From assembly GCA_037381445.1 (NCBI GenBank), contig JARRQT010000038.1:1-19547 (forward strand): a stretch of 19,547 nucleotides of DNA, given 5' to 3'. Source of the DNA: Calditrichia bacterium. GTDB taxonomy: Bacteria > Calditrichota > Calditrichia > RBG-13-44-9. The notes under the pieces were generated by a model. That model made no database searches, was not told the origin of the DNA, and saw only the letters and a program-made list of their open reading frames with translations. The first letter of the stretch is position 1. Every line of letters begins with the position of its first letter. The position numbers and the translations under genes are program-made. Shown here in pieces: positions 8,424-19,224 of the stretch.

Positions 8424-9032
8424 TCATTGAATTTGATCTGGCCCGATGATCCCTCCCGATATGACAATTTTCATGGCCTCCTCAATGGTCCAGCCAGGAT
8501 CACGGGTCTGCGATTCCCGAACCAGCACCATGGTACCGGAAGTCGGCATGGGCGGGGTGGGAATGTATACCTTGAGCAGAATTTCATCATTGTGGCCCCG
8601 GTCGTGAATTGCACCGGTTACAAAACCGACCGTCCACATACCCTGCTTCAAGTATTCGACCAGCACCACCCGTTTGAACACCTGGCGTTCCGGCAGGGCC
8701 AGCGTGACGGAAAGCTGCTTGCCTACCTGGTAAGTGGTATTGAGAAGCGGAATTCGGCTCACAATTTTTTCGATGATGCCAAAAATCTGCCGCCCGATCA
8801 TGTTGCTGGCGATGACGCCGACAAAATAGATCACCACCAGCACCAATAAAATTCCCAGCCCCGGTATGCTGAAACCAATGATTCGTTCTATTATGCGGGT
8901 CACTTTCTGATCGATGCCCACATAAAGCAGACGCAGAACCAGGAAGGTGAGAACCGGCGGGATCAGGGCCAGGATTCCCCGGAAAATATATTTTTTGAGA
9001 TGGACGAAGGATGATTTCAAACCGTTCGACAT
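8424..9032 (-). CDS. DUF502 domain membrane protein
   Basis: Two N-terminal hydrophobic segments, then RIPLLNTTY, FKRVVLVEY, GFVT, VYIPTPPMPTSG and EEAMKIVISGG. Starts 5 nt after the ligase stop. Confidence 0.88.
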   Translation of the reverse strand: MSNGLKSSFVHLKKYIFRGILALIPPVLTFLVLRLLYVGIDQKVTRIIERIIGFSIPGLGILLVLVVIYFVGVIASNMIGRQIFGIIEKIVSRIPLLNTTYQVGKQLSVTLALPERQVFKRVVLVEYLKQGMWTVGFVTGAIHDRGHNDEILLKVYIPTPPMPTSGTMVLVRESQTRDPGWTIEEAMKIVISGGIIGPDQIQ

Positions 9033-9037
9033 AACAA

Positions 9038-10120
9038 CTACCGACCCTGTTCCTGTTCGATGGCAAGCATGACGGCTTTGCTGAAATCCTCCGGGGTAAC
9101 GCCCGGCGATTGAATCCGCAAGGCATGGTACGATTCCACGATCTTTTCCCGTACCGTCTCGGATTCCATAGAAATGCCGCGGAGCGCCTGCTCCATGCCC
9201 CCCAGGGCCATCCCTGGTAACAGCGTGAAATCACCGGAGAGCGCCACATCATCGATGCGGTTGTCATGCAGCCGGACGGTGGCGCGGATGAGTCCGCCGG
9301 GCGCTTTGTAAACCGAATCCAGCAATTTGACATCTTCATGAATTTTAATGCCGCTTTGTTTTAAAGTGCCTTTTCGGTAGAGCCATTCATCCGAAAGAAA
9401 CCGTTTATCGATCCGCTGCACCATCGTCTCTTCTTCCTCAGACCAGGTACCGGGGATCACCTCGGCATTCAGGGTTTTGGCCATCTTCTCCGCATAAAGC
9501 CTTTTCACCTTCTCCCGGTCCGGAATCTTCCCAAGCTGGTCCTTGATGGTGGTCATATACTGCTCCAGACTCTCAAAAATTTTATCGCGCATTTTTTCGG
9601 AGGGCACCTTCAGAACCCTGGCCATTTTTGATTTGTCAAAATCGAACATCAGGCTGCCGACCAACACTTCAGCCTCGCCGATTTGCGCCGCCCCGGTTCC
9701 CCCGATTTTTTTCCCATCCACATGAATATCGTTCACCGGCCGCAGATAGGCCGGTATATCGAGCGCCCGGTAGGTTTCAACCAGCGGTTTTACGTATAGG
9801 CGGAAACGTGTTTCCAGATCGGCGGGTAAAGAACCGGGATGAAAAATCCATTGCACAAATACCTGGTTATTGTCCAGGTACACGGCGCCGCCGCCGACCT
9901 CCCGGCGGTACACCGGAAACCCGCTCTCCCTGCAGTAATCGAGATCCACTTCCTTCTCCAAATCCTGATGAAATCCAATACAAACATAAGGCCGCGCGGG
10001 GTTTACCAGAATAACCGTATCCGGAGAATCCGGCTTCATGGCATAGGCAACCGCATGATAACAGGTTTGTGAGCGCAGGGGCGATACATTTCCCAAATCG
10101 AGCAGTCTGATTTGTTTCAT
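9038..10120 (-). CDS. lplA: Lipoate:protein ligase (LplA family, catalytic plus C-terminal accessory domain; resembles the sLpl(AB) type of sulfur metabolisers)
   Basis: IGFHQ, RREVGGGAVYLD, PVNDI, GKKIGGTG (catalytic Lys), GSLMFDFD, LKVPSEKMRDK and a C-terminal KAPGGLIR...ALSGDF accessory domain. Confidence 0.9.
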   Translation of the reverse strand: MKQIRLLDLGNVSPLRSQTCYHAVAYAMKPDSPDTVILVNPARPYVCIGFHQDLEKEVDLDYCRESGFPVYRREVGGGAVYLDNNQVFVQWIFHPGSLPADLETRFRLYVKPLVETYRALDIPAYLRPVNDIHVDGKKIGGTGAAQIGEAEVLVGSLMFDFDKSKMARVLKVPSEKMRDKIFESLEQYMTTIKDQLGKIPDREKVKRLYAEKMAKTLNAEVIPGTWSEEEETMVQRIDKRFLSDEWLYRKGTLKQSGIKIHEDVKLLDSVYKAPGGLIRATVRLHDNRIDDVALSGDFTLLPGMALGGMEQALRGISMESETVREKIVESYHALRIQSPGVTPEDFSKAVMLAIEQEQGR

Positions 10121-10401
10121 AAATTCTTTCCTATACCCGGAAATCCGGAGTTTATTTGAATCTACAAGGGCATAATACGAACGTTATTGAATGTGAAACC
10201 ATGGCGGGAAATTTAATTTCCGCCCGGCGATTTCTCAAATGAAAAAGTGCAGCATTGCAATTCCTTCGGAGGGAACTAAAAGCCTAGATCGGCTCGATTT
10301 GTTGATCCTTCAATATTTAACCTCCTTCCCAAAATCCTTCAAAACCATCCCAGGCCGCGATCTCCTGGCAGAAATTCCCTTTTTGTCAGCGATGGGACAT
10401 C

Positions 10402-10890
10402 TCAAAGGTCTTTTTCCAGCAGCTCCCATTTTTTCAGAATCGCCATGGCCCGCTCCACGATTTCCGGAATGGCAGCCGCCACGGCAGAGCTCATTTCTGC
10501 TCCGATTTCTATGTCTTCCGGTTGAGCGCCAATGAGATGCAGGTACTTAGGGAATTTACCCCGCATGGCCGCAAATTCCAGGACCTCCTGGAAGGTTACC
10601 TGGTGCTGCGACATTTTCACCTGCGTATAAAGGGGAATCGCGTCTTTGCTCAATTCAATCACTGTTCCCGGTTCTTTGCGGGCATCAATGGCGTCCAGCA
10701 GCAAAAGGTGGCTGGATGCTTCCACGAAAGGGAGGAGATTCATTCCCAGCACGCCGCCGTCCAGTAATTCTACATTATGGGTATTACCAATTCGCTCCTG
10801 CAATGGCTTCAGGCAATGAACACCCAGCCCTTCATCGCGGTTCAGAATATTTCCCAGTCCCAAAACAATCTTGCGGTCTTTTCCGAACAT
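10402..10890 (-). CDS. hyaD: [NiFe]-hydrogenase maturation endopeptidase (HyaD/HybD family)
   Basis: VLGLGNILNRDEGLGVH, LLDGG, LLLLDAID, KMSQHQ. Lies directly downstream of the large subunit. Confidence 0.93.
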   Translation of the reverse strand: MFGKDRKIVLGLGNILNRDEGLGVHCLKPLQERIGNTHNVELLDGGVLGMNLLPFVEASSHLLLLDAIDARKEPGTVIELSKDAIPLYTQVKMSQHQVTFQEVLEFAAMRGKFPKYLHLIGAQPEDIEIGAEMSSAVAAAIPEIVERAMAILKKWELLEKDL

Positions 10891-10905
10891 AAGGTCCTTT
10901 AAATA

Positions 10906-10944
10906 CAGGCATCTTCAGTAAGAAAATATCACTAAAGATGCCTG
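10906..10944 (-). terminator. Intergenic hairpin between the hydrogenase large subunit and the protease (partial terminator or mRNA stabiliser)
   Basis: caggcatctt-c-agt (10906-10919) pairs with act-a-aagatgcctg (10931-10944). It is followed on the minus strand by TATTT. Confidence 0.55.
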
Positions 10945-10994
10945 CTTCGATTGAGTTCCCGGTTCATTTTTTCATTATTGGACGAAATCAGCTC

Positions 10995-12734
10995 TCACTT
11001 CAGACAGACATTAAAACCCGTTCCAACTTCCCCGACGGATTTGCCGTCAGCATCTACCATGTGAATCGCGCAGGCCAGACAGGGGTCGAATGAATGTATG
11101 GTTCGCAAGATCTCCAAGGGTTGATCCGGAACAGCCAGGGTGGTTCCCGGAAGCGAAGCTTCATACGCACCGGGCTGATCTTTATTATCACGCGGCGATC
11201 CGTTCCAGGTAGTAGGAACCACCATCTGATAATTGGAGATCTTCCCGCTGTCAATCACAATCCAGTGCCCTAACGCGCCCCGGGGGGCTTCCATAAAGCC
11301 GAATCCTTCCGCATGGTCTGGCCAACTGATCGGATCCCATTTTTCACCGTTGAAGGTTTGTGTGTTGCCGGACTGAATGAGGGTGATCAGCTCATCATAA
11401 TATCTCGGCAGCAGATCGCCAAAAACCTTGGTTTCGATGGCGCGTGCGGCAATCCGTCCCAGAGTGGAGAACAGTGCAGACGGCGGCGCTTTCAGCTTAT
11501 CCAGCACCACCCCCACCAGCTCCTGGGTGGGTTTATTGCCGGTGGCATACATGGCCAGCACCCGGGCCAGCGGTCCTACTTCGACAGGAGTTTCATTCCA
11601 GCGCGGCGCTTTCAGCCAGGAATATTTTTGATCCACTTCAAGATATTCGTAGGGAGGTTTGGGTCCCGTGTAATTGAAAACCGTTTCACCCTTCCACGGG
11701 TATAAACCGGCATCATTTCCCTGACTGTATTTGTACCATGAATGAGTTACAAACTCTTTCATCTTCTGCATATCATAGGGATCGGGGACGGTAATATTTT
11801 TCAGGTCCCGGTTCAGGATAAGGGTACGAGGCACATACAATTTCGAAAGATCATGGATATTGCCTTCCGGGAATTCACCCCAGGTCAGGAAATTTCCCAG
11901 GCCTTCGCCCAGCGCGGCATATTCCTTGTAATATGGGGCAATTGCCAAAACATCAGGCAAATAAACCTGGCTAATAAAGTCATTAATCTTGGTAATTGAA
12001 TCGTTAATTATAGACAGCCGGTCCGCATTCAGTGCCTGATCATTTTCCATATTTATGGGAAGCGGTACACCGCCCACCACAAAATTGGGATGGGGATTTT
12101 TTCCGCCGAAGATCACATGGATTTTAACCACATGGGCCTGCCAGTCCAGCGCTTCCAGGTAATGGGCCACCGCCAGCAGATTGATTTCCGGCGGAAGTTT
12201 ATAGGCCGGATGTCCCCAGTAACCGTTGGTGAAAAGACCCAATTGGCCGCTGTTGACGATGGCCTGTACTTTTTGTTGAACATCTGCGAAGTAACCGGGG
12301 GAAGAATTGGGCCAGGCGGAAAGACTTTGCTGAATATCGGAAGTTTTTTTCGGATCGGCTTTCAGCGCGCTTACCACATCCACAAAATCCAGCGCCTGCA
12401 GGTGGTAAAAATGCATCACATGATCATGCACGTATTGTTGGGCAATCATCATATTTCGGATGACATTCGCAGCCTGCGGGATCTGAATTTTCAGAGCGTC
12501 TTCCACCGAGCGAATGGAGGCGAAGGCATGGACAGTGGTGCATACGCCGCAGGCCCGCTGGGCAAATGCCCATGCTTCCCGGGGATCACGCCCTTTTAAA
12601 ATGATTTCTATACCACGCACCATGGTCCCGGAAGAGTAGGACTTGGTAATGGTATTATTCTGGTCCAGCTCCGCCTCAATCCGGAGATGGCCCTCAATAC
12701 GGGTTATCGGATCAACTACAAGTCGTTTGCTCAT
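10995..12734 (-). CDS. hynL: Group 1 [NiFe]-hydrogenase large subunit (Isp/Hyn-type by gene context)
   Basis: VDPITRIEGHLRIE, L1 QRACGVCTTVH, HFYHL, GGKNPHP, EAPRGALGHW, YQMVVPTTWN and L2 SFDPCLACAIH followed by a 21-aa cleavable tail. L2 has Cys, not Sec. Confidence 0.97.
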   Translation of the reverse strand: MSKRLVVDPITRIEGHLRIEAELDQNNTITKSYSSGTMVRGIEIILKGRDPREAWAFAQRACGVCTTVHAFASIRSVEDALKIQIPQAANVIRNMMIAQQYVHDHVMHFYHLQALDFVDVVSALKADPKKTSDIQQSLSAWPNSSPGYFADVQQKVQAIVNSGQLGLFTNGYWGHPAYKLPPEINLLAVAHYLEALDWQAHVVKIHVIFGGKNPHPNFVVGGVPLPINMENDQALNADRLSIINDSITKINDFISQVYLPDVLAIAPYYKEYAALGEGLGNFLTWGEFPEGNIHDLSKLYVPRTLILNRDLKNITVPDPYDMQKMKEFVTHSWYKYSQGNDAGLYPWKGETVFNYTGPKPPYEYLEVDQKYSWLKAPRWNETPVEVGPLARVLAMYATGNKPTQELVGVVLDKLKAPPSALFSTLGRIAARAIETKVFGDLLPRYYDELITLIQSGNTQTFNGEKWDPISWPDHAEGFGFMEAPRGALGHWIVIDSGKISNYQMVVPTTWNGSPRDNKDQPGAYEASLPGTTLAVPDQPLEILRTIHSFDPCLACAIHMVDADGKSVGEVGTGFNVCLK

Positions 12735-12743
12735 TCTATCCTC

Positions 12744-13064
12744 CTATTGATTACGAAGCCAATCTAAAGCTTCATCTTCGCTGTCAAAGTACTGCACATG
12801 GTTGGCATAATAGCTGGGGTCGATGTCGAGTATTTTGGTGTCAATTTTCGCGCCAAAGATAGCCGCTGTCGGCATCATGGGTCTGAAGTTTTTAATATTC
12901 CGCTCGCAGTCCGCAGGATTTGTGCCGGTCAAATCTATAAGCAGTTTCCCGTGATAATCTTTCAGGAATATTGCCAGGGACTGAACATCCTGCGGCGTAA
13001 ATTTCCCGGTGTGTTTACAGCGAAGAATACCTTTTTCAACCGGTGTGAGGGTAAAGGATGCCAT
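12744..13064 (-). CDS. Small hypothetical protein, SpoIIAA-like (STAS/SEC14) fold candidate
   Basis: 106 aa from ATG 13064 with a GGAGGT RBS (preferred over the track start at 13154). The pattern GKFTPQD...KLLIDLT...AAIFG...YFDSEDEALDWL resembles SpoIIAA-like proteins. Ends 9 nt before hynL. Confidence 0.7.
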   Translation of the reverse strand: MASFTLTPVEKGILRCKHTGKFTPQDVQSLAIFLKDYHGKLLIDLTGTNPADCERNIKNFRPMMPTAAIFGAKIDTKILDIDPSYYANHVQYFDSEDEALDWLRNQ

Positions 13065-13237
13065 AACAACACCTCCACATAAAATTTTTGTTTTTTTGTG
13101 CAATCCTCCGGAATAAGGGAAACCGGAAGTATTTCCATTAAAGAGACATATCACATAACGCCATCATGAATATCCCCTCTGTTTACCGGCTTTTCCGTTA
13201 TGCCATCAAACTGCATCTCCTTTTATTTTGATGCTGG

Positions 13238-14551
13238 TCATTCCATTGCTTTTGAGACTAGATCGGACAGACTTCTCGCTTTAATATCCGATTTGTAATA
13301 ATCCAAACCATCATTGAACTGCAACAGGCAGTTTGAACAGACCATACAAACTGTTTTCGCGCCGATTTTATTCATCTGATCCATTTTCAGACCAAAGGCA
13401 GCGAAGCGCAGGGGATCTGCTTCCTTGATGGAAATGACGCCACCACCACCGCCGCAGCAAATCGATTGTTCTCTGTTTGGCGTCAACTCCTTGAAGGAAT
13501 TTGGGGCTAACATTTTCAATATTTCACGAGGCTCTTTGATGTGACTCCCGCGGCGCTGAATTTTGCAGGCATCATGAAAAGTGATAGTACCATTGTCATA
13601 GGCGCCTTTTTTCAGCTTAATCCGACCACTACGAATATAATCCGTCATTACTGCGATGATATGTGTAACAGTCAAGCCCTTGGGCACCTGCACAAGGTTT
13701 GCAGCCGTCCAGCGAAGGGCATCGTAGGCATGGCCGCATTCGCTCACCATAATACGTTTAACCCCCAATTCCTTTGCAGCATCGAAAAGGCGGCTCAGGA
13801 AAAGTCTGGTGTGCTCATCGCTTCCTTCAAAAAAACCGAAATTTACCATTTCACGGCCCTTGGTGCTGATGGTCCAGTTCTCGCCGGCCTTATTCAGGAT
13901 TGTTGCAATTGCCGCAATGGTGGAAGGAAATTTCATCATTTCGATAGAAGTGAATGCTACCAGGGTATCAGCTCCTTTTTTATTCATGGGGATATCCACC
14001 TCCCACTCATCGGTAATCCATTCCAGGCGCTCCTGATAACGATCCAGGGTCAGGCCCAGCGGGCTTCCAATCTCAATCTGTTTCTGCACGGCATCGTGCA
14101 GGTCTTTGGGCGTTACACCGGCGGCCGTCAAGGCACCACGCACCCGGTGGATAATGGGACCGAGGTCAATTCCCATAGGGCATACCAGGGAGCATTTATT
14201 GCAAACCGTGCAGGCTTCAAAAACGATTTTACTCCAATGTTCCAAATCTTCATCAGTAATCGGCTTTTCCAAGCCAACGGCTAAACGAAGTCTTCCGCCC
14301 AAAGTAAACCGCTGCTCATAAGCCCGACGCAGAATTTCAATTTTCCAAACGGGAGAGTAGGAAGGTTCCCCGGTTGCCTGATAATAATGGCAGCCATCGG
14401 CACAAAGTCCGCAGCGGGTACAGGCTTCCAACTGGCTGGCAACCCAGCCGCCGGTTTCCCTGATCAGCGCATTGACTGCAGTTTCCGAACGGGTAGACTT
14501 CGCCTTCCCGGTTTCGACTACATTTGCACTAACTGCTGATTCTGCATTCAT
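13238..14551 (-). CDS. isp2: Isp2-like / HdrD-DsrK family Fe-S oxidoreductase with a CCG domain
   Basis: Two ferredoxin motifs (CTRCGLCADGC, CTVCNKCSLVCP), ECGHA, and a complete C-terminal CCG motif HDAC...CCGGGGG...CSNC. Located between the hydrogenase subunits. Confidence 0.88.
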   Translation of the reverse strand: MNAESAVSANVVETGKAKSTRSETAVNALIRETGGWVASQLEACTRCGLCADGCHYYQATGEPSYSPVWKIEILRRAYEQRFTLGGRLRLAVGLEKPITDEDLEHWSKIVFEACTVCNKCSLVCPMGIDLGPIIHRVRGALTAAGVTPKDLHDAVQKQIEIGSPLGLTLDRYQERLEWITDEWEVDIPMNKKGADTLVAFTSIEMMKFPSTIAAIATILNKAGENWTISTKGREMVNFGFFEGSDEHTRLFLSRLFDAAKELGVKRIMVSECGHAYDALRWTAANLVQVPKGLTVTHIIAVMTDYIRSGRIKLKKGAYDNGTITFHDACKIQRRGSHIKEPREILKMLAPNSFKELTPNREQSICCGGGGGVISIKEADPLRFAAFGLKMDQMNKIGAKTVCMVCSNCLLQFNDGLDYYKSDIKARSLSDLVSKAME

Positions 14552-14564
14552 AAATTTCCTCCTT

Positions 14565-15242
14565 TCATGGCGTTACCGCCCGTTTGCCGAACTGTGCACC
14601 ATGTATTGTCCGTGAGAAGAAATATAGCATGAAGTGTGAAATACGGCTCAAGGGAATCCAGATGAGCAAGAGGTCCACTGCAATCATATGCAGACTGAAC
14701 GCCGCCTGATATTCAAACCACAGATGACGCGACATAACGTAACCGGTGATAAAAGGCAGAAATACGATGGTCCAGTTAAACCAGTCCGCCGTTCGGGTAA
14801 TTTTCTTCAGAACCGGGTGGACAAGTCTGTTAATCAGCAGTGCAACCAATGAAATAATGCCGATGGCAGCCAGCCAATCGACATAAGGCGCCGGCAAGGT
14901 GGGCCAGCCGAATCCAAGTATGCTTTTCCATACCAGCATGTGCGGGGCCCCGAAAAAGATGATTCCGAAAAGTGACAGATGGAAAACTCCACCCGCCACA
15001 TAGGTCAGTGCATTTTTATTAAAAGTCAGTTTTACCCAGGGAATGAAGGGTAGGATAAGTATAGATTTAAGGTAAGTTATTACAACCCCGCCGATTTTGC
15101 TCCCTTTGCTGGGAACACGATCCCGTTGCCAGCCCAACAGCACAACCCGGAAGAGCCGAAAAAACATTCCGAAAAGAAAAAACACCAGGGCGGCGTAAAA
15201 CATGGGACCGCGGAGAAACCGAAGTAGTTCATCCCAGGCCAT
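14565..15242 (-). CDS. isp1: Isp1-like / NarI-DsrM family membrane cytochrome b
   Basis: About five hydrophobic helices, candidate haem-ligand His residues in VFHLS, PHML, SLHMI and ISHF, and a WIPLSRISHF motif typical of NarI/DsrM-like proteins. Follows the small subunit. Confidence 0.85.
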   Translation of the reverse strand: MAWDELLRFLRGPMFYAALVFFLFGMFFRLFRVVLLGWQRDRVPSKGSKIGGVVITYLKSILILPFIPWVKLTFNKNALTYVAGGVFHLSLFGIIFFGAPHMLVWKSILGFGWPTLPAPYVDWLAAIGIISLVALLINRLVHPVLKKITRTADWFNWTIVFLPFITGYVMSRHLWFEYQAAFSLHMIAVDLLLIWIPLSRISHFMLYFFSRTIHGAQFGKRAVTP

Positions 15243-15251
15243 ATTTACCTC

Positions 15252-16361
15252 CTATTTCTCTTTTTTTGATTCATGTTCAGCGCGCTTCTTATTAATACTA
15301 TTTGCACCTGCCAATGCCACACCAACCGCAGCGCCGGCACCTGCCGCAATGCCAAATGCCGCCAGATCAGGACGATTTAGTGGTGCTGACTGACCCTGGT
15401 AAAATCCACCACCATCCCAGAAGTTGGGCTGGGAGCAGGCCAGGCAGGGGTGATTGGATTGTACAGGAAAGGAAAGTCCCTGATACCATTTCAGGGAAGA
15501 ACAGGCATTGTAGGTAGTAGGTCCTTTGCAGCCCAGTTTGTAGAGACAGTGGCCGGCGCGGGCACCATCGTCATCAAAACTATCGGCATATTTTCCGGCA
15601 TCATAGAACGGACGACGCAGGCAGTGGTCATGAATGGTGTGGCCGTAAAACGTCATGGGGCGGTTGAGGCTGTCCATCTCCGGCAATTTTCCCATTACCA
15701 GGAAATACACAATGGTGCCGGTGGTCACTTCGGGAATAGCAGGACAGCCGGGGATATTGAGAACCGGCTTGGAAGTAATCACTTCCCACACGCCGCGCGC
15801 ATTTGTGGGATTCGGATTAGCCTTGGGAATGCCGCCAAAAGCTGCGCAATTCCCGGTCGCGATAATCGCTGCTGCACCTTCCGCCGCCTCATTGAGCAGA
15901 TCAATATTTCCACGTCCGCCGATAGTGCAGAAAACCTGATCTTCGCCAATTGCCGGACTTCCTTCAACGACCAGAACATATTTACCTTTATACTTCTCCA
16001 TGGCTTCTTTCTTGGCCTCTTCTGCCTGGAATCCGGCAGCCGCCATCAGGGTTTCCTGGTAATCCAATGCAATTTTGTTCAGCACAAGCTTCACTAAACT
16101 GGGCGACCAGGAACGGGAAATCGCTTCTGTGCAACCGGCGCAATCCTGCAACTCCAACCAGATAATGGGCACACGGGGCTTGCTCTTCAACGCATCGGCC
16201 ACCATTTTTTCCGGGCTGGGACCTGCAACAGCCCCCAGCGCCTTGACCGGCGGGGAGAACTCAACTCCCATCAAACCCGCCAATAATCCGCAGAATTTCA
16301 TAAACTCCCGTCGCGAGACACCTTCTTCTTTGAGATGCTGATAGATGGTTTTTTCAGCCAT
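15252..16361 (-). CDS. hynS: Group 1 [NiFe]-hydrogenase small subunit, Tat-exported, with a C-terminal membrane anchor
   Basis: Tat motif SRREFMK. Proximal ligands CAGCTE, GNCAAFGG and PGCP; distal HDHC...CLYKLGC; medial YNAC...HPCLAC; hydrophobic C-terminal helix. Confidence 0.97.
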   Translation of the reverse strand: MAEKTIYQHLKEEGVSRREFMKFCGLLAGLMGVEFSPPVKALGAVAGPSPEKMVADALKSKPRVPIIWLELQDCAGCTEAISRSWSPSLVKLVLNKIALDYQETLMAAAGFQAEEAKKEAMEKYKGKYVLVVEGSPAIGEDQVFCTIGGRGNIDLLNEAAEGAAAIIATGNCAAFGGIPKANPNPTNARGVWEVITSKPVLNIPGCPAIPEVTTGTIVYFLVMGKLPEMDSLNRPMTFYGHTIHDHCLRRPFYDAGKYADSFDDDGARAGHCLYKLGCKGPTTYNACSSLKWYQGLSFPVQSNHPCLACSQPNFWDGGGFYQGQSAPLNRPDLAAFGIAAGAGAAVGVALAGANSINKKRAEHESKKEK

Positions 16362-16390
16362 TAGCTTCTCCTTTCTATAGAGAATGTGAT

Positions 16391-16837
16391 TTATTCACAC
16401 GAAATATTTTCAGCCTCCAGTTTGGCCTTGTAGGTTTCCAGACCTTCGGCGCCGGTCACCAGCTCGGACCTTTCCTGGTCCCATGCACTCGCTTCCAGTT
16501 CGGCAATCCAGCCCTCACCGTAAGGATCGCTGATGGCCAGATTGGGATCGGCGTCCAGTTTCTCGTTGACCTTCACCAGTGTTCCGGTTACCGGCGCGGG
16601 AACGGGTCCCACATATTTGCTGCTTTCCACCGTAGCAAGGCTTTTTCCCTTGGGAATCTCTTTCCCAATATTTTTAGTTTTAGCCGTCACCGCATTCAGT
16701 TTCCCGCCGGACAGTTTTCCCGCCACAGTATTCATACCGACGCGAATAACATTTCCCTGCATTGGTTTCGCCCAGATGTGCTTATCAATAAAATAATAAA
16801 GATCTTCCGGAAGATCACAACCTTTTAGCTTACTCAT
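16391..16837 (-). CDS. lbpA: Lipoate-binding protein of the GcvH fold, LbpA-type
   Basis: GcvH-like LPEDLYY...HIW...VRVG-like...APVTG...VNE...DPYGEGWIAEL. The lipoyl-Lys74 sits in ESSKYVGP (LbpA-like ESxKxVGP rather than GcvH ESVKAASD). Cys7 and Cys147 near the termini match the LbpA pattern. No gcvP/gcvT in the window. Confidence 0.85.
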   Translation of the reverse strand: MSKLKGCDLPEDLYYFIDKHIWAKPMQGNVIRVGMNTVAGKLSGGKLNAVTAKTKNIGKEIPKGKSLATVESSKYVGPVPAPVTGTLVKVNEKLDADPNLAISDPYGEGWIAELEASAWDQERSELVTGAEGLETYKAKLEAENISCE

Positions 16838-16849
16838 GAGAACCTCCTT

Positions 16850-17218
16850 TTAAAATGATAAAACAGTTTTACATTCTTCCGCCATTTGCCACATGGAAGC
16901 GCCGCCAACCATCTTGACATTTTCGATCAAATCTTCCTGGGTGAGATCATGAAGTTCCATGGAAGCCGTGCAGGCAGTCATCTTTACACCGGCTTCCAGT
17001 GCTTCCTGCAGAAATTCGCCCGCCGATTTTCCGCCTTCCTTGGGATAAATGGTCTCCGCCAGCCCTTTCTTCAGCAGCAGAGTTCCGTCAATGGTAAAAA
17101 ACATCGTAACTTCGTAATCCATAGCAGCGGCCAGTGTGGCCATGAAAAATGGCGTGGCACAGCGCCGGGGGGTATCTGGCCCGCTGGTCATAACAACCAT
17201 GACTTTATCTTCATCCAT
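16850..17218 (-). CDS. DsrE/DsrF-like sulfurtransferase family protein
   Basis: 122 aa. TSGPDTPRRCATPFFMATLAAAMDYEVTMFFTIDGTLLLKKG...GVKMTACTAS (Cys83 at the DsrE active-site position)...VLSF. Confidence 0.85.
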   Translation of the reverse strand: MDEDKVMVVMTSGPDTPRRCATPFFMATLAAAMDYEVTMFFTIDGTLLLKKGLAETIYPKEGGKSAGEFLQEALEAGVKMTACTASMELHDLTQEDLIENVKMVGGASMWQMAEECKTVLSF

Positions 17219-17277
17219 AGCGTTCTCCTTCCGGGTTTATAAGTTACCGGTTTCACATATTTGAATAAAAATAAATC

Positions 17278-17754
17278 CTAAAATGTCAATGTGATGGCAT
17301 CATGACTGGCATATTCCAGAAAAGTAGCGGCGCCACCGATTTCGAGATTGTCCAGCAAATCTTCCTTTTTAATCCCCATAACATCCATTGTCATCTGGCA
17401 GGCAATCAGCCTGACATCCATCTCCATTGCCATTTCAATAAGCTCGCTCAATTTTGCCACATTGGCCTTTCTCATCCAGCCATTCATCATGGAAGTTGCC
17501 ATGGAGGTCATTCCCGGCAGCATGCCCACAATATTCGGAATGGATACGGGCATTGCCGGATTGGCAATAGGCGCAACCTGTAATTTATCTGCCCTCCCCT
17601 TTTTGAGAATTTCCAATCCGTAGAAGGTAAAAAAGATAGCAACTTCCATATCCAGCGCTGCGGCAGCGGTTGCCAGGATAAGCGGCGGATAAGCGGCATC
17701 CAGCGAGCCATGAGCCGCAATAATTGCCAGCCGTTTCTTGGTTTCTTCGGCCAT
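17278..17754 (-). CDS. dsrE2: DsrE2-type sulfurtransferase (DrsE_2 family)
   Basis: AYPPLILATAAAALDMEVAIFFTFYGL, LIACQMTMDVMG (single Cys119) and GGAATFLE. Directly follows tusA. Confidence 0.87.
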   Translation of the reverse strand: MAEETKKRLAIIAAHGSLDAAYPPLILATAAAALDMEVAIFFTFYGLEILKKGRADKLQVAPIANPAMPVSIPNIVGMLPGMTSMATSMMNGWMRKANVAKLSELIEMAMEMDVRLIACQMTMDVMGIKKEDLLDNLEIGGAATFLEYASHDAITLTF

Positions 17755-17804
17755 AATTGTTTCTCCTGAATTCTTGTGTTTTGGTTATTGTTGCTCACAA
17801 ATTG

Positions 17805-18041
17805 CTATTTGGTCTTCTTGATGTAAAAAACGAATTTGCCGCCTTCTTCCTCGTGCTCCAGCAGCTGATGGCCGGTTTTTTGTGTCCAGGCATTTACATC
17901 GCTGACGGAACCGGGATCCGTCGCGATCATTTTTAAGACCTCACCGACCTTCAGGCCGTCTACTGCCTTTTTGGTCTTGATAATTGGCATCGGACACGCC
18001 AGCCCGCTGCAGTCGAGTGTTTGATTCGGATTCACAGCCAT
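17805..18041 (-). CDS. tusA: TusA family sulfur carrier protein
   Basis: 78 aa. LDCSGLACPMP (CPxP persulfide Cys16), GEVLKMIATDPGS and FVFYIKK, with an AAGGAGG RBS. Confidence 0.95.
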   Translation of the reverse strand: MAVNPNQTLDCSGLACPMPIIKTKKAVDGLKVGEVLKMIATDPGSVSDVNAWTQKTGHQLLEHEEEGGKFVFYIKKTK

Positions 18042-18399: not shown

Positions 18400-19164
18400 T
18401 TAATCTTCTGCATCAATTTTGCTCAAATCCGCGATCTTCTTCAAACGACGGGAGAACTCCGCCCTTTCCCGGGTGACCTGTTCAAAGGTTTGAGCTACTT
18501 TTTCCAGCCACGGGGCTATTTGTTTTTGGCGTTTTTCGCCAATCACCTGAATTTCCTTTGCGGCGGCGGTCAACGCCTTCTCGTCCAGATGATACCGCCC
18601 GGCCAGACGATGGATTCGCTCCTTTTCTTCGACGGGATCAGGCTGGCTGGTATAAAATTGTCCCGCGATCAGCATGGCCGCCAGTTCGCCGTCCAGTTCT
18701 ATGCGGGCGCGGGCATACTGCAGACCAGCATGGCAAGTAACGAATTGGGGTCGAACACTCGATTGCTCCGCCAGTTTTTTCCAGCAATCGATGCAATCCT
18801 GACGGCCCTTGTCCATGGAAAAAATCATATCACAGAAACGGCATGAATTACTGATGTGCGTCAGCGGTTCGCCCTCCGGCGATGTGGTGACCGAACCGAC
18901 ATCAGCAATTTCTGCAAAAACATCCTGAATGGGGGCGATACAGTGAATGGGCAGAATAGATTTCATCTGCATTTTGGTCTGGGATTTGGGAACATCCTGC
19001 ACGGCAATGAGGTCCTGAATATTTTTCCGGGGGAAACGCCAGTGGTTTCCCACCTTTACCGCTTTCAAACGCCCGTCATTAATCATGCGGTAAATGGTGG
19101 TCCTGTCCACTTTCAGCAAATCCAGAACCTGTTTGGTTGTTAATAAATCTTCCACAACATACAT
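18400..19164 (-). CDS. Transcriptional regulator: excisionase-type HTH (HTH_17) fused to a PocR sensory domain
   Basis: N-terminal LLTTKQVLDLLKVDRTTIYRMINDGRLKAVKVGNHWRF (excisionase/HTH_17). C-terminal GEPLT..SNSCRFC...C..C...FVTCHAGL...ELAAMLIAGQF (PocR domain). Confidence 0.88.
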   Translation of the reverse strand: MYVVEDLLTTKQVLDLLKVDRTTIYRMINDGRLKAVKVGNHWRFPRKNIQDLIAVQDVPKSQTKMQMKSILPIHCIAPIQDVFAEIADVGSVTTSPEGEPLTHISNSCRFCDMIFSMDKGRQDCIDCWKKLAEQSSVRPQFVTCHAGLQYARARIELDGELAAMLIAGQFYTSQPDPVEEKERIHRLAGRYHLDEKALTAAAKEIQVIGEKRQKQIAPWLEKVAQTFEQVTRERAEFSRRLKKIADLSKIDAED

Positions 19165-19166
19165 CC

Positions 19167-19197
19167 ATTTGCTATAGCTTACTACTATTTGCTATAG
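19167..19197. promoter_or_regulatory. 11-bp direct repeat at 20-bp spacing (candidate operator)
   Basis: atttgctatag at 19167-19177 and 19187-19197, with a degenerate ttactac unit between them. Overlaps the predicted -10 and transcription start. Confidence 0.6.
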
Positions 19198-19224
19198 TAT
19201 ATAAAATGAAATTGGACATGTCAA
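19196..19224 (-). promoter_or_regulatory. Near-consensus sigma70 promoter of the HTH-PocR regulator
   Basis: Minus strand TTGACA (19224-19219), 17-nt spacer, TATACT (19201-19196), 31 nt upstream of the ATG at 19164. Confidence 0.8.

Follow-up and report, generated by a model that had tools for sequence, protein, structure and literature searches.

The identity of the electron acceptor of Isp2, an iron-sulfur subunit of Isp-type [NiFe]-hydrogenases, is the question raised by a gene cluster from a Calditrichia bacterium, which lies within a 19,547-nucleotide stretch of contig JARRQT010000038.1 (assembly GCA_037381445.1) that was analyzed at its full length and is referred to here as the window. 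In the accessible text of two papers, Isp2 is described as heterodisulfide-reductase-like or is modelled as feeding an unnamed low-potential cytoplasmic acceptor (10.1101/2022.12.13.520232, PMC10892978). In the window, eleven co-oriented open reading frames (ORFs), all on the minus strand, run in the order tusA-dsrE2-dsrE-lbpA-hynS-isp1-isp2-orf-hynL-protease-ligase, placing genes for sulfur carriers, a lipoate-binding protein and a lipoate ligase in one cluster with those of a hydrogenase. The cluster is a real, conserved and apparently undescribed combination of known modules. We favor, while stopping just short of calling it probable, a reading in which H2 oxidation would power the release of sulfide by Isp2 from sulfane sulfur carried on lipoylated LbpA, a reaction analogous to that of DsrK on DsrC.

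The gene order and the ten spacings given in the preliminary description agree with the ORF coordinates. Counted from the longest ORF starts, the gaps are 50, 59, 12, 29, 9, 13, 83, 9, 104 and 281 nt, and the 83-nt interval after isp2 becomes the 173 nt first reported once the small ORF is begun at the ATG at 13064, a start common to its relatives. Searches against Pfam and NCBIfam confirmed the gene families: TusA, two DsrE-family proteins, a GcvH-fold protein, HynS and HynL, a TmcC/HmcE-like and a DsrK-like protein, a protease and a lipoate ligase. Spacing and synteny suggest that carriers and hydrogenase are co-transcribed. A scan for promoters and terminators performed at chance level overall (17 versus 14.5 and 12 versus 15.0, respectively) and does not settle the matter; it placed a 9/12 promoter-like site in the gap before the ligase, where the 281 nt of the window are long and loci L033, L036, L046 and L048 have less than 25 nt.

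The hydrogenase was earlier assigned to the Isp type, and gene order together with the family matches upholds that assignment. Its isp1 and isp2 genes lie between those of the small and large subunits, the layout by which the type is defined in the available portion of 10.1101/2022.12.13.520232, and a twin-arginine (Tat) signal, a membrane anchor and the NiFe cysteine motifs are all present. The small subunit HynS (15252..16361; TIGR00391) carries the signal SRREF, its twin-arginine motif kept in 25 of 26 aligned proteins, and a C-terminal membrane anchor (hydrophobic segment 332-350). Isp1 (14565..15242), a DsrM/TmcC-like membrane cytochrome b that matches the TmcC and HmcE models below their cut-offs, has five hydrophobic segments, and His88, 101, 173, 185 and 203 are kept in 24/24 aligned proteins. 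The large subunit HynL (10995..12734; PF00374) contains the motifs RACGVC and DPCLACAIH and a cleavable C-terminal tail. Among solved structures the closest is 3MYR, the Allochromatium vinosum hydrogenase, at 804 bits; the runner-up scores 721. In a tree built without labelled HydDB references, HynL falls in a non-proteobacterial clade, separate from the proteobacterial Isp HynL proteins, to which it is 58-60% identical. A hydrogenase maturation protease (10402..10890; PF01750, TIGR00072) follows hynL.

Three putative sulfur carriers open the cluster, each with an invariant cysteine. TusA (17805..18041; PF01206) has a CPMP motif with Cys16, invariant in 23/23 aligned proteins, and is the sole TusA homolog detected in the genome by blastp. 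The DsrE2-type carrier (17278..17754; PF13686) scores 175 bits with NF047629, under the cut-off of 210, has 2QS7 as its nearest structure and keeps Cys119 in 22/22. The third protein (16850..17218) has 3MC3 as its nearest structure (E 1.4e-18), and its Cys83 and an additional Cys20 are both invariant in 24/24. According to the part of PMC4175335 available, a Cys-X7-Cys motif marks DsrE3A; this motif is absent, with the second cysteine missing in 62/62 aligned DsrE proteins, and the protein is therefore filed as DsrE3A-like only.

The GcvH-like carrier encoded next (16391..16837) is LbpA, as judged from its residues and its position in a tree. LbpA is defined in the accessible text of PMC6067878 by a lipoyl lysine and one cysteine near each terminus, these cysteines being absent from GcvH. 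Here Cys7, lipoyl Lys74 and Cys147 are invariant in 42/42 sequences (the window protein and 41 of 120 listed homologs), and the 24 hydrogenase-adjacent LbpA proteins form one clade (support 100) inside a two-cysteine group (99) in a tree of 117 GcvH-fold proteins, bearing out the earlier identification. GcvH itself was considered and rejected: the protein scores 68 bits against a GcvH cut-off of 116 and is placed apart from the true GcvH of the genome, whose gene adjoins gcvPA/PB on contig C96, so glycine cleavage has an H protein of its own; use of the cluster carrier for glycine cleavage was an objection named in the preliminary description. The predicted structure of LbpA has a pLDDT of 85. 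The ligase (9038..10120; PF21948) is of the type found in sHdr clusters, intermingles in a FastTree phylogeny with those encoded in type II sHdr-like clusters, is about 25% identical to the housekeeping LplA of the genome, and is likely dedicated to the cluster LbpA. Across relatives, ligases of at least two clades occupy this position, and at L039 the unit also includes a ligase-LipS1 fusion and LipS2.

Is this arrangement more than an accident of one contig? A scan for LbpA covered 5 of the 64 parts of a genome collection and retained 80 of 596 loci. All 19 of the retained loci with LbpA at least 57% identical have hynS-isp1-isp2 directly downstream; in the other 61 (LbpA at most 48%, many on short contigs) neither hynS nor hynL was seen. 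In the reverse direction, 13 of 301 genomes of the class Anaerolineae (that of G089) encode an Isp2 at least 61% identical; in each of the 13, lbpA precedes isp2 on the same strand at a distance of 1.8-2.5 kb, and a close lbpA was never seen in the 301 without Isp2. The synteny search thus found the cluster, whose confinement to one contig had been a concern, in 31 other genomes from several phyla (including G074), 25 mapped gene by gene, 20 of them selected through lbpA, and six by lbpA and isp2 coordinates only. Since the same gene order recurs in these genomes, the association is more than chance. Among the 25 mapped loci, and with some losses at contig ends, lbpA, hynS, isp1 and isp2 are present in 25 each, dsrE in 24, dsrE2 and hynL in 23, tusA and the protease in 22, the ligase in 18 and the small ORF in 16. 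According to their record titles, operon loci belong to Chloroflexota, Ignavibacteria/Bacteroidota, Acidobacteriota, Bacillota and Actinomycetota. Most operon-bearing records are metagenome bins, and their labels may be mistaken; L047, for example, bears a different family name from L041, to which it is nearly identical. Frameshifts affect L035 and L053. The unit is patchily distributed, occurring in 2 of 86 genomes of its own phylum and, for the class of G092, in a single genome out of 201, which suggests transfer as a block. Roughly scaled from 19 loci in 5/64 of the collection, some 240 species would carry the operon.

The hydrogenase-linked Isp2, LbpA and HynL proteins each form one clade (SH-like support 99, 100 and 99). 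The Isp2 tree was a quick IQ-TREE run and the LbpA, ligase and HynL trees were made with FastTree, all with SH-like support only and excluding rows below 70-85% query coverage, which loses genes that are truncated or frameshifted (those of L053 and L049, for example). Controls came from 401 genomes, whose 14 top-ranking Isp2 matches gave 11 proteobacterial Isp-hydrogenase loci; these show no tusA, dsrE or lbpA within 11-19 kb. Four Anaerolineae-class Isp loci have no lbpA. At the Isp hydrogenase loci L131 and L132, isp2 occurs as a tandem pair with no carriers in the vicinity.

Isp2 (13238..14551) has DsrK as its best model, at 239 bits against a cut-off of 400, and contains two cubane motifs, one CCG motif (Cys329, 365, 366, 405 and 408) and an ECGH motif with Cys272. 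All of these residues are invariant in 38/38 aligned proteins and follow the DsrK-type pattern. The predicted structure (pLDDT 91) is nearest to the solved folds of EtfD and HdrB, and the copy of the Protein Data Bank searched yielded no LbpA, DsrK or Isp2 structure. In the available text of PMC10861901, DsrMKJOP reduces DsrC trisulfide to sulfide, and the cysteine of a GECGH motif is proposed to be catalytic. Among 77 distant metagenome homologs, the ECGH cysteine position is occupied by cysteine in 48 and by an in-frame TGA in 29, with only one other stop inside the same alignments, and a downstream hairpin is more stable in the TGA versions (mean z -1.2, n=20) than in the others (0.1, n=40). 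These TGA codons likely encode selenocysteine, and exchange between cysteine and selenocysteine is a mark of a redox-active thiol. The TGA loci themselves (L218:1164, L219:3480, L216:3642 and 26 others among L215-L258) are DsrK/TmcB/HmcF-like genes that ordinary gene calling splits, and may already be known.

DsrK-like proteins also accompany sulfur carriers where there is no hydrogenase. Five genomes (L123-L127) have the order tusA-dsrE2-dsrE-dsrM-like-dsrK-like-lbpA with no hydrogenase in the cluster and, in the two checked, an ArsR gene upstream; 14 metagenome loci (L197-L210, at least 73% identical) agree as far as their contigs reach, seven with the full set, five with lbpA and two with the upstream carriers. 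We regard the arsR-tusA-dsrE2-dsrE-dsrM-like-dsrK-like-lbpA cluster as a candidate quinol:lipoyl-protein persulfide reductase. In a separate clade, eleven DsrK-like genes are accompanied by dsrE2 and tusA only (L138-L140, L145, L147, L148, L151-L153, L160 and L161), with three more in metagenomes (L214, L220 and L245); such dsrE2-tusA-dsrM-like-dsrK-like modules, lacking lbpA and hydrogenase, occur in Anaerolineae- and Ignavibacteria-class genomes and also at L229. Further DsrMK-like pairs, in another separate clade, adjoin dsrC, and in L143:5470-12256, from the phylum of the source genome, a type II sHdr cluster is extended by a DsrMK-like pair and then by a GcvH-like gene, ligases and LipS1/S2. 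At L146:6488-9968, L150 and L154, dsrC-dsrM-like-dsrK-like genes are followed by a class V aminotransferase resembling cysteine desulfurase, and no dsrAB was seen nearby. The separate clades indicate that DsrMK-like pairs were joined to sulfur carriers several times, and these hydrogenase-free pairings are the strongest reason why the comparative data favor an Isp2 that acts on carrier-bound sulfur. A group 1-like hydrogenase is encoded elsewhere in 13 of 15 genomes with hydrogenase-free modules. An origin of the operon by insertion of a hydrogenase into a hydrogenase-free carrier module is unsupported, its Isp2 being nested among other hydrogenase-linked Isp2 proteins.

The favored reading can be set out as a path for electrons and a path for sulfur. 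Tat-exported HynSL would oxidize H2 at the external side of the membrane, and electrons would pass through the hemes of Isp1 to the two cubanes and the single noncubane cluster of Isp2. Polysulfide or small persulfides would be the source of the sulfane sulfur that DsrE2 and DsrE collect and hand to TusA, as shown for sHdr-linked homologs; TusA would load LbpA, lipoylated at Lys74 by the cluster ligase, on which the lipoyl dithiol or Cys7/Cys147 may hold the sulfur as a persulfide or trisulfide. Isp2 would then reduce this sulfur by means of its noncubane cluster and Cys272, as DsrK does with the DsrC trisulfide. At standard state H2 and polysulfide lie only about 150 mV apart, a span near that of the proton-motive force (pmf), so the enzyme would likely be reversible and the energy yield small. 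The available text of PMC10892978 reports that the Thiocapsa enzyme Hyd reduces S0 with H2 in the dark. The preliminary description had the complex take the place of sHdr; the gene context agrees with this, and for the mechanism DsrMK acting on the DsrC trisulfide is a closer model.

Several points weigh against the favored reading, beginning with the fact that all of its functional steps rest on gene context and homology. Every characterized LbpA serves oxidation, as far as the accessible part of PMC6067878 goes. The proteobacterial Isp hydrogenases share the Isp2 cysteines and have no adjacent carriers, implying that Isp2 can work with something else, and the eleven DsrK-like genes with tusA and dsrE2 alone imply that LbpA may not be the direct substrate. 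The ligase is kept in 18 of the 21 loci that are long enough, leaving three that extend far enough and do without it, and L034, from an Oscillochloris strain, lacks tusA, dsrE2 and the ligase while keeping lbpA and dsrE. No YeeE/YedE sulfur importer is detectable in the source genome, and among the 31 operon-bearing genomes dsrA went undetected in 25 and a close PhsA-like gene in 23. The TGA-containing homologs are about 30% identical to Isp2, none of them within a hydrogenase operon. Finally, Isp2 His274 aligns with His583 of EtfD, which is said in the available text of PMC13083937 to make the EtfD cluster non-catalytic; DsrK has the same histidine and is nonetheless catalytic, so this weakens the case for catalysis by Isp2 and does not remove it.

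One alternative retains the reductive chemistry and makes a persulfide on TusA (or DsrE2) the substrate of Isp2, with LbpA an auxiliary resolving dithiol or sulfur buffer. The lbpA-free clade described above argues for it, as does the one-way flow of sulfur in vitro, from DsrE to TusA, reported in the portion of PMC11094781 available; lbpA abuts hynS, however, in 25/25 mapped loci (with the selection through lbpA already stated), and the gene content of L034 and the general retention of the ligase also speak against it. We judge it unlikely. Of the carrier logic originally proposed for Isp2, action on carrier-bound sulfur is favored by the comparative data; the identification of that carrier as LbpA is weakened by its absence from the eleven related tusA/dsrE2 modules.

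A second and equally unlikely alternative is that the complex supplies cytoplasmic reductant, Isp2 reducing oxidized lipoyl-LbpA, which would then pass electrons through dihydrolipoamide dehydrogenase to NAD+ or use its dithiol to clear toxic persulfides. The genome encodes two dihydrolipoamide dehydrogenases over cut-off, a link from LbpA through this enzyme (E3) to NAD+ is proposed in the accessible text of PMC6067878, Isp2 has been modelled as feeding a low-potential cytoplasmic acceptor (10.1101/2022.12.13.520232, available portion), and the ArsR-family gene that precedes hydrogenase-free modules is of a kind that often precedes stress operons. Three conserved sulfur carriers would be superfluous, however, for NAD+ reduction alone, none of the mapped loci showed a gene for E3, and for NAD(P) the genome encodes a soluble hydrogenase that is group 3b-like.

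The gene content of the source genome (G000), which is 92% complete, bears on the direction of the reaction. Searches with tblastn and two query sets found no match to sHdrA, B1, C1 or H in the genome, and none lies in the cluster; LipS1/S2, DsrA and DsrC were not found there either, SoxB did not exceed its cut-off, and Psr/Phs was not found, the molybdopterin-family matches being NuoG/Fdh-like or QrcB-like. A separate sHdr system that might use this carrier, against which the preliminary description had cautioned, is thus not in evidence, and the recommended check for dsrA, SoxB and Psr genes came back equally empty. LipA, a housekeeping LplA and GcvH are encoded in the genome, and a second lipA lies in two pieces on contig C114. 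The genome has two more group 1 hydrogenases with an ordinary cytochrome b, as well as a sulfhydrogenase-like enzyme; single queries detected hypA, hypB and hypD and not hypF or hypC, despite four [NiFe]-hydrogenase clusters, and incompleteness is the likely cause. Among operon-bearing genomes, sHdrB1 is present in 3 of 20 and dsrA in 6 of 31, and 8 of 31 have a PhsA-like gene that scores about 500 bits, below the cut-off. In the Anaerolineae-class sample, dsrA occurs in 6 of 13 operon carriers versus 9 of 288 other genomes (Fisher p 7e-6, a value overstated by kinship), and dsrD is present in 3/3 co-occurring Dsr clusters checked. The gene dsrD usually marks sulfur reducers. A Rieske protein and a molybdopterin/DsrO/DsrP-like set come after dsrAB-dsrD-dsrC-dsrMK in the Anaerolineae-class loci L193, L194 and L196, of which L193 alone was annotated in full.

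Were the system to run oxidatively, sulfide or thiols would be converted to carrier-bound sulfane sulfur at Isp2, with electrons passing to quinone or to pmf-driven H2 evolution. Characterized LbpA/TusA/DsrE sets serve oxidation (PMC6067878, PMC11094781, available text), the nearest relatives of LbpA and its ligase sit in type II sHdr-like clusters, and group 1e hydrogenases are described as bidirectional in the accessible part of PMC7735108; we nonetheless consider this direction quite unlikely, given a source genome in which no sHdr, Dsr or Sox was found to process the sulfur further and co-occurring Dsr clusters that carry the reducer's marker dsrD. Least probable is a co-location that reflects shared regulation only, the hydrogenase feeding the quinone pool and the carriers serving iron-sulfur, lipoate or thio-cofactor biosynthesis: Isp loci without lbpA, the housekeeping roles of TusA and the cysteine desulfurase beside some DsrC-DsrMK-like modules fit it, but the order is fixed over several phyla, the in-unit ligase comes from different clades, DsrK-like genes are repeatedly paired with carriers, and the genome owns LipA, LplA and GcvH.

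The unit has a twelfth gene, overlooked in the preliminary description. It lies 5′ of the other eleven (18400..19164, minus strand) and encodes a transcription regulator with an HTH_17 (excisionase/BldC-like) domain and a PocR sensory domain (PF12728, PF10114); on the evidence of its recurrence in 18 of the 25 mapped loci, it is part of the cluster unit. Its Cys111, Cys124, Cys144 and His145 are kept in 19/19 aligned proteins. The best site of the promoter scan precedes it, a sigma-70-like promoter at 19224-19196 matching 11/12 consensus positions (-35 19224-19219, -10 19201-19196), and overlaps a direct repeat of 10-bp period at 19197-19168 (unit CTATWGCAAA), the whole feature occupying 19168..19224 on the minus strand. 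Such a repeat is found 5′ of 8 of 22 regulator genes versus 0 of 4400 shuffles, a test that is post hoc, the motif having been picked by eye from the same sequences. BldC-like regulators bind direct repeats, and the repeat of the window is a predicted operator of the HTH_17-PocR protein. The dsrE2-tusA modules of L138 and L161 have a regulator of the same HTH-PocR family. The small ORF (12744..13064) encodes a 106-residue STAS/SEC14 (SpoIIAA-like) protein, an optional accessory, with a weak match to PF11964 (E 2e-4; atlas clusters 0.96) and Cys16 and Cys53 kept in 15/15. The ligase is separated by 5 nt from a gene for a DUF502 membrane protein (8424-9032), which the related loci did not show and which is excluded from the unit. 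Elsewhere in the window, positions 2730-2873 hold a perfect 72-nt tandem duplication in an aspartokinase gene, repeating 24 residues in frame, which is an assembly artefact or a very recent duplication.

Comparison with known systems, each as described in the accessible portions of the papers cited, places the cluster among four. It shares its hydrogenase layout, Tat signal, nearest HynL structure and a reported link to S0 reduction with the Isp-type HynS-Isp1-Isp2-HynL enzymes of Allochromatium, Thiocapsa and Acidithiobacillus, which correspond to HydDB group 1e in a second-hand statement (PMC7735108). Compared with the proteobacterial enzymes it adds tusA, two dsrE genes, lbpA, a ligase, the regulator and the STAS/SEC14 gene, and its HynL stands in the separate clade already noted. 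From type II sHdr-LbpA systems (PMC6067878, PMC11094781, PMC10332631), which likewise have a two-cysteine LbpA, TusA, DsrE2, a DsrE3A-like protein and a related ligase, it differs in having no sHdrA/B1/C1/H and, as redox partner, a membrane hydrogenase with a DsrMK-like pair. The menaquinol:DsrC-trisulfide oxidoreductase DsrMK(JOP) (PMC10861901) has the same diheme-type membrane subunit and an iron-sulfur subunit with two cubanes, CCG and ECGH, but here neither DsrC nor DsrA was found in the source genome, the donor is a fused hydrogenase and the DsrK score is under cut-off. TusA and DsrE carriers in anaerobes are shared with the YTD clusters (yedE-tusA-dsrE) of sulfur reducers and disproportionators (PMC8528874, PMC13490349), whereas the cluster has no YedE and has LbpA, a ligase and a hydrogenase. 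A literature search whose coverage left out most subscription journals found no description of the cluster, and no paper in it combined lipoate, the Isp type and hydrogenase.

The operon names small, expressible partner candidates, and the residues to examine in them, for the question of what Isp2 reduces. More speculatively than the proposal made for Isp2 itself, lipoylated LbpA may be the DsrC-equivalent of a new sulfur respiration, in which H2 would be oxidized outside and Isp1-Isp2 would reduce a lipoyl-protein trisulfide inside, yielding energy from S0 or polysulfide without Dsr, Psr or sHdr. The operon would then belong to a wider family of DsrMK-like persulfide reductases in which the carrier can be exchanged (LbpA, TusA/DsrE2 or DsrC), including menaquinol-fed versions that have no hydrogenase, and this would be the first reductive role for LbpA. 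If so, lipoate would have a part in both the oxidation and the reduction of sulfur, and H2-dependent sulfur reduction could take place in anaerobes, among them Anaerolineae, that have none of the customary marker genes.

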